Source: a virus
Taxonomy: Duplodnaviria > Heunggongvirae > Uroviricota > Caudoviricetes
DNA: 7,312 nucleotides
Virus record (IMG/VR): IMGVR_UViG_2663762886_000007
Reading direction: 5' to 3' (one strand)
Positions 1-7,312 of the stretch are shown in pieces. The position numbers and the translations under genes are program-made. Every line of letters starts with the position of its first letter. Position 1 is the first letter of the stretch. A model generated the notes under the pieces. That model ran no database searches. It was not told the origin of the DNA and worked only from the letters and a program-made list of their open reading frames with translations.

Positions 1-46
1 CTGGCGCACTGACGGTTTCATCGTGGGTGTCGGTTATAAGTTCTGA
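1..46 (+). CDS. lom: Lom (Ail/Lom/OmpX-family outer-membrane protein) C-terminal end, partial; gene continues upstream of the window
   Basis: Frame ending at TGA 44-46 encodes ...WRTDGFIVGVGYKF, identical to the C-terminus of the longer lom fragment at 1115..1516. Followed 28 bp later by a hairpin plus T-run. Whether the upstream lom is intact cannot be seen. Confidence 0.7.
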   Translation, partial: WRTDGFIVGVGYKF

Positions 47-73
47 TTAGCCAGGTAACACAGTGTTATGACA

Positions 74-99
74 GCCCGCCGGTTCAGGCGGGCTTTTTT
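74..99 (+). terminator. Rho-independent terminator downstream of lom (copy 1 of 3)
   Basis: GCCCGCC (74-80), loop GGTTCA, GGCGGGC (87-93), then TTTTTT (94-99). Perfect 7-bp GC-rich stem followed by a U-run. Confidence 0.7.
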
Positions 100-110
100 G
101 TGGGGTGAAT

Positions 111-1154
111 ATGGCAGTAAAGATTTCAGGTGTACTGAAAGACGGCACAGGAAAACCGGTACAGAACTGCACAATCCAGCTGAAAGCAAAACGTAACAGC
201 ACCACGGTGGTGGTGAACACGCTGGCCTCAGAAAATCCGGATGAAGCCGGGCGTTACAGCATGGACGTTGAGTACGGTCAGTACAGCGTTATTCTGTTGG
301 TGGAAGGATTCCCGCCGTCACATGCCGGGACCATCACCGTGTATGAAGATTCCCGACCCGGTACGCTGAATGATTTTCTCGGTGCCATGACGGAGGATGA
401 TGCCCGTCCGGAGGCTCTGCGCCGTTTTGAACTGATGGTGGAAGAGGTGGCGCGTAACGCGTCCGCGGTGGCACAGAACACGGCAGCCGCGAAGAAGTCA
501 GCCAGTGATGCCGGCACATCTGCCCGTGAGGCGGCAACCCATGCGACTGATGCTGCAGATTCAGCACGTGCAGCCAGCACGTCAGCCGGACAGGCCGCTT
601 CGTCGGCTCAGTCAGCGTCTTCCAGCGCAGGAACGGCATCAACAAAGGCCACTGAAGCCTCAAAAAGTGCTGCCGCTGCAGAGTCCTCAAAAAGCGCGGC
701 GGCTACCAGTGCCGGTGCGGCGAAAACGTTAGAAACGAATGCGGCAGCGTCACAACAATCAGCAGCCACTTCTGCATCCACCGCGACCACGAAAGCGTCA
801 GAAGCTGCCACCTCAGCCCGGGATGCGTCGGCTTCAAAAGAGGCGGCAAAATCATCAGAAACGAACGCATCATCAAGCGCCAGTAGCGCAGCTTCCTCGG
901 CGACGGCGGCTGCAAATTCTGCGAAGGCGGCCAAAACGTCCGAGACGAACGCCAGGTCTTCTGAAACGGCAGCGGGACAGAGTGCCTCAGCTGCGGCAGG
1001 CTCAAAAACAGCGGCTGCGTCGTCTGCCAGCGCCGCGTCAACAAGTGCCGGGCAGGCCTCAGCCAGTGCCACCGCCGCCGGAAAATCGGCAGAAAGCGCC
1101 GCATCATCCGCTAGACGTCATTCAGCTATGCAGGAGACAAGAATCGCCAGCTGA
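111..1154 (+). pseudogene. stf: Side tail fibre Stf, N-terminal fragment (copy A); stf sequence ends at about 1112 and the frame runs 14 codons into out-of-frame lom sequence before TGA
   Basis: ATG at 111 ([26 protein letters not shown]...) preceded by GGGGTG as a likely ribosome-binding site; the track's GTG at 105 is less likely the start. Nucleotides 111..1112 are near-identical to 2837..3838 of the full-length copy. After 1112 the sequence is lom-derived and the stf frame ends ...RRHSAMQETRIAS*. Confidence 0.7.
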
Positions 1155-1516
1155 CCCGTTACAGCGATACCCGCTGGCATGAAGATTCCGTTCGTAACCG
1201 CTGGTTCAGCGTGATGGCGGGGCCGTCTGTGCGCGTGAATGAATGGTTCAGCGCGTATGCGATGGCGGGTGTGGCTTACAGCCGTGTGTCGACTTTCTCC
1301 GGGGATTATCTCCGCGTAACTGACAACAAGGGGAAAACGCACGACGTGCTGACCGGAAGTGATGACGGTCGCCACAGCAACACGTCTCTGGCGTGGGGAG
1401 CTGGCGTGCAGTTTAACCCGACCGAATCCGTGGCCATTGATATTGCTTATGAAGGCTCCGGCAGTGGCGACTGGCGCACTGACGGTTTCATCGTGGGTGT
1501 CGGTTATAAGTTCTGA
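1115..1516 (+). pseudogene. lom: lom 3' fragment (about 134 codons) lacking its 5' end and start codon
   Basis: In the lom frame a TAG sits at 1112-1114, then TSFSYAGDKNRQLTRYSDTRWHEDSVRNRWFSVMAGPSVRVNEWFSAYAMAGVAYSRV...GSGSGDWRTDGFIVGVGYKF* to TGA 1514-1516. I recognise this as the C-terminal part of a Lom-type beta-barrel protein. The only in-frame starts are internal (GTG 1211, ATG 1214), with no obvious ribosome-binding site. Confidence 0.7.
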
Positions 1517-1543
1517 TTAGCCAGGTAACACAGTGTTATGACA

Positions 1544-1569
1544 GCCCGCCGGTTCAGGCGGGCTTTTTT
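1544..1569 (+). terminator. Rho-independent terminator downstream of lom (copy 2 of 3)
   Basis: Same GCCCGCC-GGTTCA-GGCGGGC-TTTTTT hairpin as at 74..99. Confidence 0.7.
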
Positions 1570-1580
1570 GTGGGGTGAAT

Positions 1581-2738
1581 ATGGCAGTAAAGATTTCAGG
1601 TGTACTGAAAGACGGCACAGGAAAACCGGTACAGAACTGCACAATCCAGCTGAAAGCAAAACGTAACAGCACCACGGTGGTGGTGAACACGCTGGCCTCA
1701 GAAAATCCGGATGAAGCCGGGCGTTACAGCATGGACGTTGAGTACGGTCAGTACAGCGTTATTCTGTTGGTGGAAGGATTCCCGCCGTCACATGCCGGGA
1801 CCATCACTGTGTATGAAGATTCCCGACCCGGTACGCTGAATGATTTTCTCGGTGCCATGACGGAGGATGATGCCCGTCCGGAGGCTCTGCGCCGTTTTGA
1901 ACTGATGGTGGAAGAGGTGGCGCGTAACGCGTCCGCGGTGGCACAGAACACGGCAGCCGCGAAGAAGTCAGCCAGTGATGCCGGCACATCTGCCCGTGAG
2001 GCGGCAACCCATGCGACTGATGCTGCAGGCTCAGCGCGTGCAGCCAGCACGTCAGCCGGACAGGCCGCGACTTCGGCTCAGGAGGCGTCTTCCAGCGCAG
2101 GAACGGCATCAACAAAGGCCACTGAAGCATCAAAAAGTGCTGCCGCTGCAGAGTCCTCAAAAAGCGCGGCGGCCACCAGTGCCGGTGCGGCGAAAACGTC
2201 AGAAACGAATGCTGCAGCGTCACAAAAATCAGCAGCCACTTCTGCATCCACTGCGACAACGAAAGCGTCAGAAGCCGCCACTTCAGCCAGAGATGCGGCG
2301 GCCTCCAAAGAGGCGGCAAAATCATCAGAAACGAACGCCTCCACAAGCGCCAGCAGTGCAGCCTCCTCGGCAACGGCGGCAGGAAATTCCGTGAAGGCGG
2401 CAAAAACGTCCGAGACGAATGCTAAGTCTTCTGAAACGGCAGCGGAACAGAGCGCCTCAGCTGCGGCAGACTCTGAGACAGCAGCTGCATCATCGGCCCG
2501 TGAGGCGTCCATTAAGGCAGAGGAGGCAGCAGTCAGTGCCACCGCCGCCGGAAAATCGGCAGAAAGCGCCGCATCATCCGCATGGTTCAGCGCGTATGCG
2601 ATGGCGGGTGTGGCTTACAGCCGTGTGTCGACTTTTTCCGGGGATTATATCCGCGTAACTGACAATAAGGGGAAAACGCACGATGTGCTGACCGGAAGTG
2701 ATGACGGTCGCCACAGCAACACGTCTCTGGCGCACTGA
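1581..2738 (+). pseudogene. stf: Stf N-terminal fragment (copy B) fused in frame to lom codons at 2581/2582, then frameshifted by an 83-bp deletion in the lom part
   Basis: ATG 1581. The stf-derived part 1581..2581 is identical to copy A over the first ~450 bp and diverges from copies A and C at many sites from about 2027. From 2582 the sequence is lom (WFSAYAMAGVAYSRVSTFSGDYIRVTDNKGKTHDVLTGSDDGRHSNTSLA) and the frame ends H-stop at TGA 2736-2738 just after the deletion point. Confidence 0.65.
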
Positions 2739-2772
2739 CGGTTTCATCGTGGGTGTCGGTTATAAATTCTGA
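2582..2772 (+). pseudogene. lom: lom 3' fragment (second, shorter) with an internal 83-bp deletion; a diverged lom allele
   Basis: Aligns to 1243..1516 of the longer lom fragment, with substitutions (for example L to I, AAG to AAA at the penultimate codon). The 83 bp corresponding to 1394..1476 are missing, bounded by the hexamer CTGGCG. The original lom stop is TGA 2770-2772. Confidence 0.6.
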
Positions 2773-2799
2773 TTAGCCAGGTAACACAGTGTTATGACA

Positions 2800-2825
2800 G
2801 CCCGCCGGTTCAGGCGGGCTTTTTT
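2800..2825 (+). terminator. Rho-independent terminator downstream of lom (copy 3 of 3)
   Basis: Same hairpin plus T-run as at 74..99 and 1544..1569. Confidence 0.7.
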
Positions 2826-2836
2826 GTGGGGTGAAT

Positions 2837-5800
2837 ATGGCAGTAAAGATTTCAGGTGTACTGAAAGACGGCACAGGAAAACCGGTACAGAACTGCACAA
2901 TCCAGCTGAAAGCAAAACGTAACAGCACCACGGTGGTGGTGAACACGCTGGCCTCAGAAAATCCGGATGAAGCCGGGCGTTACAGCATGGACGTTGAGTA
3001 CGGTCAGTACAGCGTTATTCTGTTGGTGGAAGGATTCCCGCCGTCACATGCCGGGACCATCACCGTGTATGAAGATTCCCGACCCGGTACGCTGAATGAT
3101 TTTCTCGGTGCCATGACGGAGGATGATGCCCGTCCGGAGGCACTGCGCCGTTTTGAGCTGATGGTGGAAGAGGTGGCGCGTAACGCGTCCGCGGTGGCAC
3201 AGAACACGGCAGCCGCGAAGAAATCAGCCAGCGATGCCAGCACATCAGCCCGTGAGGCGGCAACCCATGCGACTGATGCTGCAGATTCAGCACGTGCAGC
3301 CAGCACGTCAGCCGGACAGGCCGCTTCGTCGGCTCAGTCAGCGTCTTCCAGCGCAGGAACGGCATCAACAAAGGCCACTGAAGCCTCAAAAAGTGCTGCC
3401 GCTGCAGAGTCCTCAAAAAGCGCGGCGGCTACCAGTGCCGGTGCGGCGAAAACGTTAGAAACGAATGCGGCAGCGTCACAACAATCAGCAGCCACTTCTG
3501 CATCCACCGCGACCACGAAAGCGTCAGAAGCTGCCACCTCAGCCCGGGATGCGTCGGCTTCAAAAGAGGCGGCAAAATCATCAGAAACGAACGCATCATC
3601 AAGCGCCAGTAGCGCAGCTTCCTCGGCGACGGCGGCTGCAAATTCTGCGAAGGCGGCCAAAACGTCCGAGACGAACGCCAGGTCTTCTGAAACGGCAGCG
3701 GGACAGAGTGCCTCAGCTGCGGCAGGCTCAAAAACAGCGGCTGCGTCGTCTGCCAGCGCCGCGTCAACAAGTGCCGGGCAGGCCTCAGCCAGTGCCACCG
3801 CCGCCGGAAAATCGGCAGAAAGCGCCGCATCATCCGCTTCAACAGCCACAACGAAGGCTGGCGAAGCCACTGAACAGGCCAGCGCAGCAGCGAGGTCTGC
3901 TTCCGCAGCGAAGACATCCGAAACGAACGCGAAAGCGTCGGAAACCCGTGCAGAATCCTCAAAAACGGCTGCCGCATCGTCCGCCAGTTCGGCGGCGTCA
4001 TCGGCATCATCGGCGTCTGCTTCAAAAGATGAGGCGACCAGACAGGCGTCAGCAGCGAAGGGCAGCGCCACGACGGCATCCACGAAGGCGACAGAGGCTG
4101 CTGGTAGTGCGACGGCAGCAGCTCAGAGCAAAAGTACGGCGGAATCTGCAGCAACGCGCGCTGAGACAGCGGCAAAACGGGCAGAGGATATTGCATCCGC
4201 CGTGGCGCTTGAGGATGCGAGCACGACGAAAAAGGGGATAGTACAGCTCAGTAGTGCGACTAACAGCACTTCCGAGTCACTGGCGGCAACACCAAAAGCC
4301 GTTAAGGCCGCGTATGACCTGGCTAACGGGAAATACACCGCACAGGATGCAACGACAGCACAGAAAGGGATAATCCAGCTAAGCAGCGCGACCAACAGCA
4401 CGTCTGAAACGCTGGCGGCAACGCCAAAGGCAGTAAAAGCAGCCAATGACAATGCTGAGAAACGTCTGCAGAAAGATCAGAACGGTGCGGATATCCCTGG
4501 CAAAGACACCTTTACGAAAAATATTGGTGCCTGCCGTGCCTTCGGTGGGTCAGTAAGCACAACAACAGGAAACTGGACGACTGCACAGTTTATCGAGTGG
4601 CTGGATTCTCAGGGAGCATTTAACCATCCATACTGGATGTGCAAGGGTTCCTGGTCTTATGGCAATAATAAAATCATTACTGATACTGGCTGCGGTAATA
4701 TTCATCTCGCCGGAGCTGTCATTGAAGTAATGGGGATAAAGTCAGCGATGACGATCCGCATTACCACTCCGACCACATCCAGCGGTGGCGGAACAACCAA
4801 CGCCCAGTTTACCTATATTAATCACGGAACAGATTATTCACCTGGCTGGCGAAGGGACTATAACTCCAGAAATAAGCCAACGGCATCAGAGATCGGGGCG
4901 CTACCGTCAGGTGGAACAGCAGTATCATCAGTTAATCTGGCTTCAAAAGGTCGGGTAGCCGCGCTGACAGACAATACGCAGGGGGCAGCAGGTCTTGAGT
5001 TATACGAGGTGTATAACAACGGATATCCAACAGCGTATGGAAATATCATTCACCTGAAAGGGATGACAGCCGTTGGCGAAGGTGAGTTACTCATCGGCTG
5101 GAGTGGTACAAGCGGTGCTCATGCTCCGGCATTTATTCGTTCACGACGGGATACGACCGACGCAAACTGGTCGCCGTGGGCGCAGCTTTACACCTCGGCT
5201 CATCCTCCTGCAGAGTTTTATCCAGTCGGTGCACCAATCCCGTGGCCATCAGATACCGTTCCGTCTGGTTATGCCCTGATGCAGGGGCAGACTTTTGACA
5301 AATCTGCTTACCCGAAACTTGCAGCCGCTTATCCGTCAGGCGTGATCCCTGATATGCGTGGCTGGACGATTAAGGGCAAGCCCGCCAGTGGTCGTGCCGT
5401 ATTGTCTCAGGAACAGGATGGCATTAAATCGCACACCCACAGCGCCAGCGCATCCAGTACGGATTTGGGGACGAAAACCACATCGTCGTTTGATTACGGC
5501 ACTAAATCCACGAATAACACCGGGGCGCATACGCACAGTCTGAGCGGCTCTACAAGTTCAGCTGGGGCCCACCAACATAGTCAGACTGGGCCCAGAACGA
5601 ATAGCGGGAGTCAACCTACTGGAATGTTTCCGGCAGGGAGTACTCAAGTTAGCGGGACTAATCAGGTTGGTATCAGTGGCTCATTAACCAGTGGCACCTC
5701 CCAATGGGTAGGTAAATCATCTTCAGAAGGAAACCATACACACTCACTGTCCGGCACAGCAGCATCTGCGGGTGCACACGCGCATACTGTCGGTATTGGT

Positions 5801-5920
5801 GCTCATACGCACTCTGTTGCGATTGGTTCACATGGACACACCATCACCGTTAACGCTGCTGGTAACGCGGAAAACACCGTCAAAAACATCGCATTTAACT
5901 ATATTGTGAGGCTCGCATAA
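2837..5920 (+). CDS. stf: Side tail fibre protein Stf, full length (1027 aa)
   Basis: Long ORF starting [26 protein letters not shown]... with an Ala/Ser/Thr-rich repetitive shaft, a duplicated GI[VI][11 protein letters not shown][ST][11 protein letters not shown] motif, and a His-rich C-terminal region (HTHS, HQHS, HAHT, HGHT) ending ...[19 protein letters not shown] recognise this as lambda Stf-like. Stop TAA 5918-5920 overlaps the tfa ATG by 1 nt. Confidence 0.85.
4235..4450 (+). repeat. Intragenic tandem duplication (period 132 bp, 44 codons) of a 28-aa motif inside stf
   Basis: 4235..4318 encodes [28 protein letters not shown] and 4367..4450 encodes [28 protein letters not shown]. The protein is conserved but many synonymous sites differ, so the duplication is old and under selection. 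Confidence 0.8.
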
Positions 5921-6501
5921 TGGCATTCAGAATGAGTGAACAAGCACGGACCATAAAAATTTATAACCTGCTGGCCGGAACTAATGAATTTATTGGTGAA
6001 GGTGACGCATATATTCCGCCTCATACAGGTCTGCCTGCAAACAGTACCGATATTGCACCGCCAGATATTCCGGCTGGTTTCGTGGCTGTTTTCAACAGTG
6101 ATGAGTCATCGTGGCATCTCGTTGAAGATCATCGGGGTAAAACGGTTTATGACGTGGCTTCCGGCGACGCGTTATTTATTTCTGAACTCGGCTCATTACC
6201 GGAAAATGTCACCTGGTTATCCCCGGAAGGGGAGTTTCAGAAGTGGAACGGCACAGCCTGGGTGAAGGATACGGAAGCAGAAAAACTGTTCCGGATCCGG
6301 GAGGCGGAAGAAACAAAAAACAGCCTGATGCAGGTAGCCAGTGAGCATATAGCGCCGCTTCAGGATGCTGTGGATCTGGAGATCGCAACGGAGAAAGAAA
6401 CCTTGTTGCTGGAAGCTTGGAAAAAGTATCGGGTGTTGCTGAACCGTGTTGATACATCAACTGCACCGGATATTGAATGGCCAGTAGCACCTATAGGGTA
6501 A
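5920..6501 (+). CDS. tfa: Tail fibre assembly protein Tfa (193 aa)
   Basis: [61 protein letters not shown]..., which I recognise as close to lambda Tfa (phage T4 gp38-like chaperone family). Translationally coupled to stf through TAATG, with GAGGCT about 8 nt upstream. Confidence 0.9.
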
Positions 6502-6587
6502 ATTCGTAATGATTACCTAAATACGTTATTCTTTTGTTAAAAAAGTGATTTTGCTATAGGTAGGGAGTATGTTCTTGGATTAAGAAT

Positions 6588-6618
6588 AAAAAATCGCCAT
6601 GAAAGAGCTTCATGGCGA
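6588..6618 (-). terminator. Candidate rho-independent terminator for leftward (minus-strand) transcription
   Basis: Perfect inverted repeat CGCCATGAA (6595-6603), loop AGAGC, TTCATGGCG (6609-6617). On the minus strand the stem is followed by a U-run (complement of A-run 6588-6593). No minus-strand ORF is visible upstream of it in this window. Confidence 0.4.
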
Positions 6619-6947
6619 GTACATAAACGTACAAAATGTGATGAAAGTAGAGTGGCGTAAGCCACTATATTAAGATATGACAATAGCGAAGAAAAGTAAA
6701 TAACATTTTATGGACGTTTAATTGTTAATTATAAAAACTAGAGTGCCCGATATTGTTTATCTTGCTTTAAAATAATGTACTCAAACCAAATTTTTGAGCT
6801 AAAAGCTCAAATAATATAAATGCAATAATAATGTTTAATAAGACAATTAGCTTGCTTTGTATTTTCATTTCGGAATACTGTTAAGTAACTTTGATGACCC
6901 TAACAATAGATCGGAATTTTCTTAGAGTCAATGGTCACTGTTTTTGC

Positions 6948-6977
6948 TTGCAAAGCAAATGTTTTGGTGGTTATAAG
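6948..6977 (+). promoter_or_regulatory. Weak sigma70-like promoter candidate (TTGCAA - 17 bp - TTATAA)
   Basis: Hexamers at 6948-6953 and 6971-6976 with 17-bp spacing. Such matches occur by chance in AT-rich DNA, and it overlaps a small AT-rich hairpin (about 6943-6959). Confidence 0.15.
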
Positions 6978-7249
6978 TCGTCTTAATATAGTCACGCATG
7001 CAACTTGTTCCATGCGGAGATTAAAGATTGGAATATAACGCGAAGATGGAATTAAATTACATTTGCAATAATTAATTTATTATTACTCAATAATTACCGA
7101 TATTATTATTGTAAATTAATCATTAGAATGCAAAAAGAAATGTAACGGCAAAATAAGAGGACGATAGCTGAGAAAAAAGCGTGCTTTCCCAATCTGGGGC
7201 AAATCACGTCTGAATGACACCTGAAAACAGGTGGTAGCCTCAAGAAGGC

Positions 7250-7312
7250 TGGTGATGCTGCCAACTTACTGATTTAGTGTATGATGGTGTTTTTGAGGTG
7301 CTCCAGTGGCTT
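7250..7312 (+). other. Segment resembling the edge of a p15A-type (pACYC184) plasmid replicon fragment
   Basis: From memory, GGTGATGCTGCCAACTTACTGATTTAGTGTATGATGGTGTTTTTGAGGTGCTCCAGTGGCTT matches the sequence immediately after the cat-side junction in pACYC184, where the p15A-derived part begins. I cannot run a search, so this is recall only. Confidence 0.35.

Follow-up and report, generated by a model that had tools for sequence, protein, structure and literature searches.

The locus analysed here raises the question of whether a lambda-like phage can carry three partial copies of its lom-stf region head to tail, ahead of one complete side tail fibre gene. In the window, that is the whole stretch of 7,312 nucleotides, such an arrangement is apparent. 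We conclude that the triple repeat is very probably an assembly artefact, a short-read scaffold of three contigs, and not a biological structure. The three contigs probably derive from separate prophages within a single E. coli-type genome.

Layout of the three copies

Comparison of the window with itself placed the copies at 1-1112 (A), 1471-2581 (B) and 2727-3838 (C). Copy A (1-1112) aligned with C (2727-3838) free of gaps at 99.4% identity, and A (1-1111) with B (1471-2581) at 94.3%; B shares about 94% identity with A as well as with C, and the lom tail at 1243-1393 matched 2582-2732 at 97.4%. This similarity is far above chance. Each copy contains the 3' end of lom, a terminator hairpin that is identical in A, B and C (73-94, 1543-1564 and 2799-2820) and 333-334 codons of stf, with the ATG at 111, 1581 and 2837, respectively. 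Copy C alone runs on into the full 1027-aa Stf and then Tfa. The earlier note had given about 334 stf codons to each copy and the receptor-binding part and tfa to the last one only, and this description holds; its gene calls (lom tail, terminator, stf N-terminal part, one complete stf and tfa) are likewise borne out by Pfam matches and hairpins. It had also rightly observed that the copies differ in sequence patches and in junction position, since lom is entered at 1114 after A and at the equivalent of 1244 after B, an offset of 130 nt. Tandem Repeats Finder reported nothing on the window because it handles periods of up to 500 only, less than the length of the repeat unit.

The two junctions are gaps in the deposited record

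The window corresponds to the whole of CXFW01000202.1, from the draft assembly GCA_001251215.1. Comparison with this record showed exactly two mismatches, at 1113 and 2582, where "N" was deposited and "A" is displayed. Together with the self-comparison, this puts the two Ns precisely at the two stf-to-lom junctions, the points where the homology breaks, as a scaffold artefact would have it; the unbroken sequence that a real duplication would show over each novel junction is absent. The displayed "A" at 1113 suits neither neighbour, as both natural sequences read T there. What looks like a "tandem array" is thus three contigs set in one scaffold, their junctions unsequenced, with the following parts.

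1..1112, + strand: scaffold piece 1 (copy A), with the final 46 nt of lom, the terminator and stf codons 1-334
1113..1113, no strand: scaffold gap, "N" in CXFW01000202.1 and "A" in the window
1114..2581, + strand: scaffold piece 2 (copy B), with the 3' two-thirds of lom, the terminator at 1543-1564 and stf codons 1-333
2582..2582, no strand: scaffold gap, "N" in CXFW01000202.1 and "A" in the window
2583..7312, + strand: scaffold piece 3, with a lom 3' fragment, the terminator, stf, tfa, a spacer and the left end of IS1

Of the three head-to-tail copies described before, the repeats thus stand in the letters of the window, while their contiguity is not confirmed.

Pieces 2 and 3 match ordinary single-copy loci

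In piece 2, lom occupies 1114-1516, equivalent to positions 67-199 of the Pfam Ail_Lom profile (PF06316, match on 1115-1516, E = 1.5e-77), and stf occupies 1581-2581. The piece is collinear and unbroken, at 99.7% identity, with the J-lom-stf-tfaQ-pinQ locus of the complete genome NZ_CP086391.1, which is an ordinary locus with one lom and one stf. Ahead of the equivalent of 1114 this genome reads lom sequence, and past the stf break it reads "ttcaacagcc...", the same as copy C.

Piece 3 holds the remaining features of the window.

2837..5920, + strand: stf (side tail fibre), the only complete copy, 1027 aa from ATG
5920..6501, + strand: tfa, the tail fibre assembly gene (PF02413 Caudo_TAP, E = 4.6e-44)
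6502-7250: AT-rich spacer between tfa and IS1
7251-7312: left end of IS1, which starts about 750 nt downstream of tfa

The Stf protein presents the PF08400 phage_tail_N domain at residues 1-134 (E = 1.4e-71), two PF03406 Phage_fiber_2 repeats and a PF07484 Collar domain. An Ail/Lom gene lies directly upstream of stf, as is also annotated in the matching complete genomes, and tfa follows stf immediately, so that the N-terminal domain, the fibre repeats, the distal domain and the gene order of a lambda-type module are all found. The scaffold terminates 61 nt inside IS1, and the tfa-spacer-IS1 arrangement is also present in complete genomes. From 2582 onwards, piece 3 aligns across 4731 nt with FTXA01000194.1 at 99.94% identity; this contig, from a sister draft assembly, encodes the same 1027-aa Stf in a single-copy context where the upstream sequence is lom 5' and J, not stf'. 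As with piece 2 and NZ_CP086391.1, the piece is therefore collinear with an ordinary locus that carries on beyond the break, as expected of a scaffold artefact. The lom 3' fragment has a 77-bp deletion, the flanks of which overlap in CTGGCG at 2727-2732. With a 50-nt query this deletion was found in no complete E. coli genome, and it was found in no GTDB species representative; a 100-nt query across it was ambiguous, the two flanking pieces being merged into one place.

Piece 3 is the only true locus, an ordinary lambda-like lom-stf-tfa module. The real content of the window is that module plus partial sequence from one or two paralogous prophage loci.

Where the contigs break

Both stf breaks fall at one coordinate, 48-49 nt beyond the last allele-distinguishing site (1063) and inside a 157-nt stretch that is identical in the B-type and C-type alleles. 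A k-mer graph with k near 49 behaves in this way. Piece 3 starts 53 nt ahead of the first allele-specific site, where k = 49 predicts 48 nt, and the k-mer account is in this respect approximate. Piece 1 opens exactly where the lom allele with the 77-bp deletion and the intact one start to share sequence. Considering this start at a lom allele branch point, the stf breaks and the end in IS1, each terminus is a repeat boundary, and the pieces end on boundaries of sequence common to paralogous copies, as those of a scaffold artefact should.

Since both breaks share one coordinate, stf nt 1008, a site-specific recombination hotspot was considered there, similar to an invertase crossover. It was rejected because allele identity and k-mer length explain the position, no invertase gene lies in the window and both junctions are gaps. 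On the same three grounds, a diversity-generating or cassette mechanism was also rejected.

Search for the junctions and the case for a real array

Using 100-nt queries centred on the junctions and requiring at least 80% query coverage, neither junction was found in any of 5,426 complete E. coli genomes. Each half of the queries alone had matches in thousands of these genomes, and the number of lom-stf places per E. coli genome has a median of 2 and a maximum of 14. A query with positions 1-4000 was uninformative against the complete E. coli genomes, as A, B and C collapse to one place of about 1.6 kb per genome. The junctions are thus absent from the independent sequences that a real duplication might share, including the single-copy sister contig.

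If the order of the scaffold were right, the window would hold a true tandem lom'-stf' array, produced by illegitimate recombination or amplification, with junctions that merely went unassembled. The scaffolder did set the pieces in this order and direction, leaving minimal gaps, the three pieces are different alleles, so that one contig was not used thrice, and paired-read links could in principle mirror a real adjacency. Within a repeat that is 94-100% identical, however, read pairs are ambiguous. Two independent events would moreover have had to cut stf at the same nucleotide, which is just where allele identity and k-mer length lead one to expect a break, and an amplification would leave identical junctions and near-identical copies, yet the lom entries are 130 nt apart and B is 6% diverged. 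Given also the unsequenced junctions, the negative genome search and the sister assembly, we consider a true array very unlikely. The repeated recombination or decaying amplification suggested in the earlier note meets the same non-identical junctions, divergence of B and N gaps; the copies differ because they are three different contigs or alleles, not through decay of an amplification.

Still less probable is a correct order with functional consequences, in which late transcription of two extra lom'-stf' modules before stf could give Stf N-terminal fragments that occupy the tail attachment site. The proposal that such truncated fragments compete with full-length Stf finds against it the N gaps, the result of 0 in 5,426 and the single copy in the sister assembly. 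An engineered construct or cloning artefact, also raised before, would account for the unusual layout and for nothing more; no vector or linker sequence is present, natural prophage alleles match all pieces, the junctions are gaps and the flank is a native IS1, which makes this origin vanishingly improbable. What the N gaps, the genome search and the single J-lom of the sister assembly do support is the last of the earlier suggestions, a mis-joining of near-identical prophages by the assembler.

Origin of the scaffold and of piece 1

In the artefact reading, three contigs (1-1112, 1114-2581 and 2583-7312) were chained by single-N gaps, and in each of them a lambda-like prophage is covered at the lom 3' end and the stf 5' end. 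The most likely cause is that two or three prophages of one genome share, at 94-99% identity, a segment of about 1.1-1.5 kb. Where the alleles turn identical, the assembly graph would have broken, and ambiguous read pairs would then have joined the fragments. Pieces 1 and 2 would, we infer, belong at other places in the genome, each ahead of a different stf gene; alternatively, piece 1 may be a chimera that runs through both real alleles.

Piece 1 has the lom stop at 44-46 and stf at 111-1112. Compared with B and C, it has zero private bases across 1112 nt, being equal to B at site 40 and at 416-521, and to C at site 338 and at 559-1112. Its best match in a complete genome reaches only 98.8%, and its exact allele occurs in no complete genome. 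Either a third allele or a chimera would fit piece 1. In the latter case, a variant of the artefact reading, just two real lom-stf loci would exist, B-type and C-type, and piece 1 would be a contig that switches between them. The mosaic pattern and the missing allele are consistent with this, as B is found at up to 99.7% in complete genomes and the C-bearing piece 3 at 99.94% in the draft contig FTXA01000194.1. The switch from 521 to 559, however, covers merely 37 invariant bases, and k near 49 demands real reads with that combination; mosaics of this kind are also common among natural prophage alleles. We regard the two-locus variant as possible, though rather doubtful.

Comparison with known systems

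The lambda-type J-lom-stf-tfa arrangement, as in lambda, Rac (stfR/tfaR) and Qin (stfQ/tfaQ), shares its genes, terminator and domains with piece 3, and the gene order of piece 3 is that of NZ_CP086391.1 and of a second complete genome, each with one lom and one stf. Piece 3 differs from it in nothing substantive and is peculiar only in the 77-bp deletion that truncates lom and in the IS1. With repeat-induced scaffold mis-joins the window has in common the N at the junctions, the ends at boundaries of repeats or allele identity and the paralogous alleles of multi-copy prophages; it differs in showing N as A, which hides the gaps. The likeness to a genuine tandem duplication by illegitimate recombination lies in the head-to-tail order of homologous units, whereas in the window no junction is sequenced, the two junctions differ from each other, one unit shows 6% divergence and none of the complete genomes searched has the arrangement. 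Invertible tail-fibre cassettes (the Mu G segment, the P1 C segment and e14/Qin pin) also place extra partial fibre genes beside a complete one, but these duplicate the C-terminal variable part, inverted, beside a recombinase gene, while in the window the N-terminal part is repeated directly and no invertase gene is present. The natural B-type locus of NZ_CP086391.1 has pinQ downstream of tfaQ.

Proteins read across the gaps

As an ordinary lambda-like side tail fibre module, the locus has little biological weight. Its practical interest is somewhat greater: the replacement of N by a base hid the two scaffold gaps, and the artefact then resembled a gene rearrangement. Two open reading frames, the "truncated Stf" of 347 aa and the "Stf-Lom fusion" of 385 aa, result from reading over the gaps, and such proteins do not exist. 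For the 347-aa frame of copy A, the protein look-up gave no exact match because the codon at 1113 carries N in the record; exact look-ups of proteins with GTG starts gave no match. The chimeric 385-aa "Stf-Lom" protein does stand in a public protein collection, since gene callers read across single Ns, and scans of draft assemblies should count single-N joins within multi-copy prophage genes as breaks.

Repeat layout and gaps in the deposited record

Self-comparison of the window returned three copies of a 1.1-kb segment, A (1-1112), B (1471-2581) and C (2727-3838). The identity is 99.4%, gap-free, between 1-1112 and 2727-3838, 94.3% between 1-1111 and 1471-2581, and 93.7% between 1471-2581 and 2727-3837. 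A second repeated stretch, the lom tail, aligns 1243-1393 with 2582-2732 (97.4%). All three copies contain the end of the Ail/Lom gene and, ahead of the stf start, an identical terminator hairpin (AGCCCGCCGGTTCAGGCGGGCT, then a T run):

73-94, 1543-1564, 2799-2820: terminator hairpin, one per copy
111, 1581, 2837: stf start ATG, 334 codons per copy

Only in the third copy does stf extend onward, into a 1027-aa Stf in which profile searches found phage_tail_N, Phage_fiber_2 repeats and Collar, with tfa (Caudo_TAP) directly after it. Past 1112 the sequence jumps into mid-lom, from Ail_Lom profile position 67 onward; past 2581, lom is entered 130 nt further along than at the first junction.

An exact-protein look-up identified the window as the record CXFW01000202.1, in its full length of 7312 bp, from the draft assembly GCA_001251215.1. 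Compared base by base, the two differ at exactly two positions, 1113 and 2582, where the record has 'N' and the window 'A'; these are precisely the single bases separating the end of stf homology from the start of lom homology. The 'A' at 1113 matches neither neighbour, both natural continuations having T there. The record is thus made up of three contigs, scaffolded with minimal gaps:

1-1112: scaffold piece 1
1114-2581: scaffold piece 2
2583-7312: scaffold piece 3

Hence the three tandem modules described in the earlier note stand as letters, but their head-to-tail contiguity, which gave that finding its interest, was never sequenced, both junctions being N in the public record. The 'A' put in the window for the gap character conceals the scaffold joins from readers of the raw letters.

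Two ORFs, a 347-aa 'truncated Stf' and a 385-aa 'Stf-Lom fusion', are read across these gaps of unknown content. The latter (1581-2738), called across the N at 2582, joins Stf residues 1-333 to a Lom fragment, and its in-frame appearance holds only for a gap of exactly one base. It is present as a protein in a public collection, where the look-up flagged it as not translating to the query, and the 347-aa ORF had no match in the exact-protein look-up; both results follow from the N gaps. The 385-aa entry is an artefactual chimera. The idea of competition by truncated Stf for attachment to the tail has no basis.

The three pieces in other genomes

Queries of 100 nt centred on each junction were compared with 5,426 complete E. 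coli genomes. Neither junction was matched in any of them at 80% query coverage or more (0/5,426); each half of a query, by itself, matched more than 4,000.

Of the three, piece 3 represents a real locus. It runs from a lom that has lost 77 bp through a terminator, stf and tfa to an AT-rich spacer and IS1. The draft contig FTXA01000194.1, from a sister assembly and free of Ns, encodes an identical 1027-aa Stf and is 99.94% identical to 2582-7312. Upstream of the equivalent of 2582 it carries the remaining lom and the J C-terminus, and no stf fragment. The complete genome NZ_CP084096.1 has the same tfa, AT-rich spacer and IS1 right end, with one lom and one stf, in a prophage adjoining ybhB-bioA.

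Piece 2 comes from part of a second lom-stf locus, one of Qin-like type. It aligns ungapped, at 99.7%, with the complete genome NZ_CP086391.1, where the order J, lom, stf, tfaQ, pinQ is ordinary. Past the equivalent of 2581 this genome continues with ttcaacagccacaacg..., identical to the continuation of copy C at 3838, and ahead of the equivalent of 1114 it has lom; piece 2 is thus a normal locus simply cut short at both ends.

Piece 1, which is copy A, is in the variant table a mosaic drawn wholly from B and C, without private variants, B-like at sites 40 and 416-521 and C-like at sites 338 and 559-1112. Its exact allele was found in none of the complete genomes (best 98.8%). Two origins would fit, a third prophage allele formed by recombination and a chimeric contig. 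No more than 37 invariant bases separate sites 521 and 559, between which the switch occurs; with an assembly k of about 49, so short an interval would speak for a real allele.

Position of the breaks

Both stf fragments end at one shared coordinate, and the same stop in two recombination events would be an odd coincidence. The last allele-distinguishing site of the variant table is copy coordinate 1063, which lies 48 nt (B) and 49 nt (A) from the piece ends, and the natural B-type allele equals allele C over 157 nt around the break (3790-3946). In a k-mer graph with k near 49, an allele-specific path would end on entry to the collapsed shared node; allele identity past site 1063 together with such a k would account for the shared coordinate. 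Piece 1 starts with CTGGCGCACTG, the first base shared by the intact (…GGCGA|CTGGCG) and 77-bp-deleted (…CGTCT|CTGGCG) lom tails, and this start is another graph convergence point. At the other end, the scaffold breaks off in the left end of IS1, after 61 nt (7251-7312); IS1 is identified by its terminus and by the IS1A transposase annotation that complete genomes have at this place. Every terminus is therefore a repeat boundary. The fit is imperfect for piece 3, which begins 53 nt, not 48 nt, ahead of its first allele-specific site; edge trimming or gap-filling may be the cause.

An E. coli genome has the lom-stf 5' segment at a median of 2 places, and at 14 at most; in such multi-copy sequence, read pairs yield false scaffold links. 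On every testable point the layout agrees with a repeat-induced scaffold mis-join. A real array behind the scaffold order is very improbable: unlike a real duplication, this layout has no sequenced junction, its junctions are non-identical, one unit is 6% diverged and the tandem arrangement does not recur in other genomes, so that it departs from a real duplication wherever the two could be compared. The tandem array is not a real feature. Stripped of the joins, the sequence is a standard lambda-type lom-stf-tfa module and shows each of the defining features tested.

lom deletion, spacer and internal repeats

The lom tail entered past 2581 is 77 bp shorter than the intact copy, in which the missing stretch lies between CTGGCG hexamers at 1388-1393 and 1465-1470:

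2727-2733 (compare 1388-1470); FTXA01000194.1 1197-1203: 77-bp lom deletion

The deletion is a frameshift, with Lom cut to 160 aa in FTXA01000194.1. It was found in none of the 5,426 complete E. coli genomes and in none of the GTDB species representatives. Two draft assemblies have it, with no Ns there. A real slippage event specific to the lineage is its probable origin.

FTXA01000194.1 reaches 28 nt further into the IS1 copy than the scaffold. The same tfa, spacer and IS1A arrangement occurs in 528 complete genomes at a coverage of at least 80%. The tfa-IS1 interval (6502-7250, 750 nt) is AT-rich, with 31-34% GC compared to 50-63% elsewhere, and contains a weak inverted repeat (6651-6675/6981-7005); it has no ORF of at least 60 aa, and the matching stretch of NZ_CP084096.1 bears no annotated gene. 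Rfam IS009 (RF02111) matched over its full model with 218 bits at 6263-6461 (+), within the 3' half of the tfa coding sequence. In stf, the Phage_fiber_2 repeats (4212-4318 and 4344-4450) share about 74-77% identity, and the Ala/Ser-rich shaft has a 28-nt motif repeated at spacings that are multiples of 42 nt (14 codons), between 715 and 3930; such internal repeats are ordinary for this fibre family.
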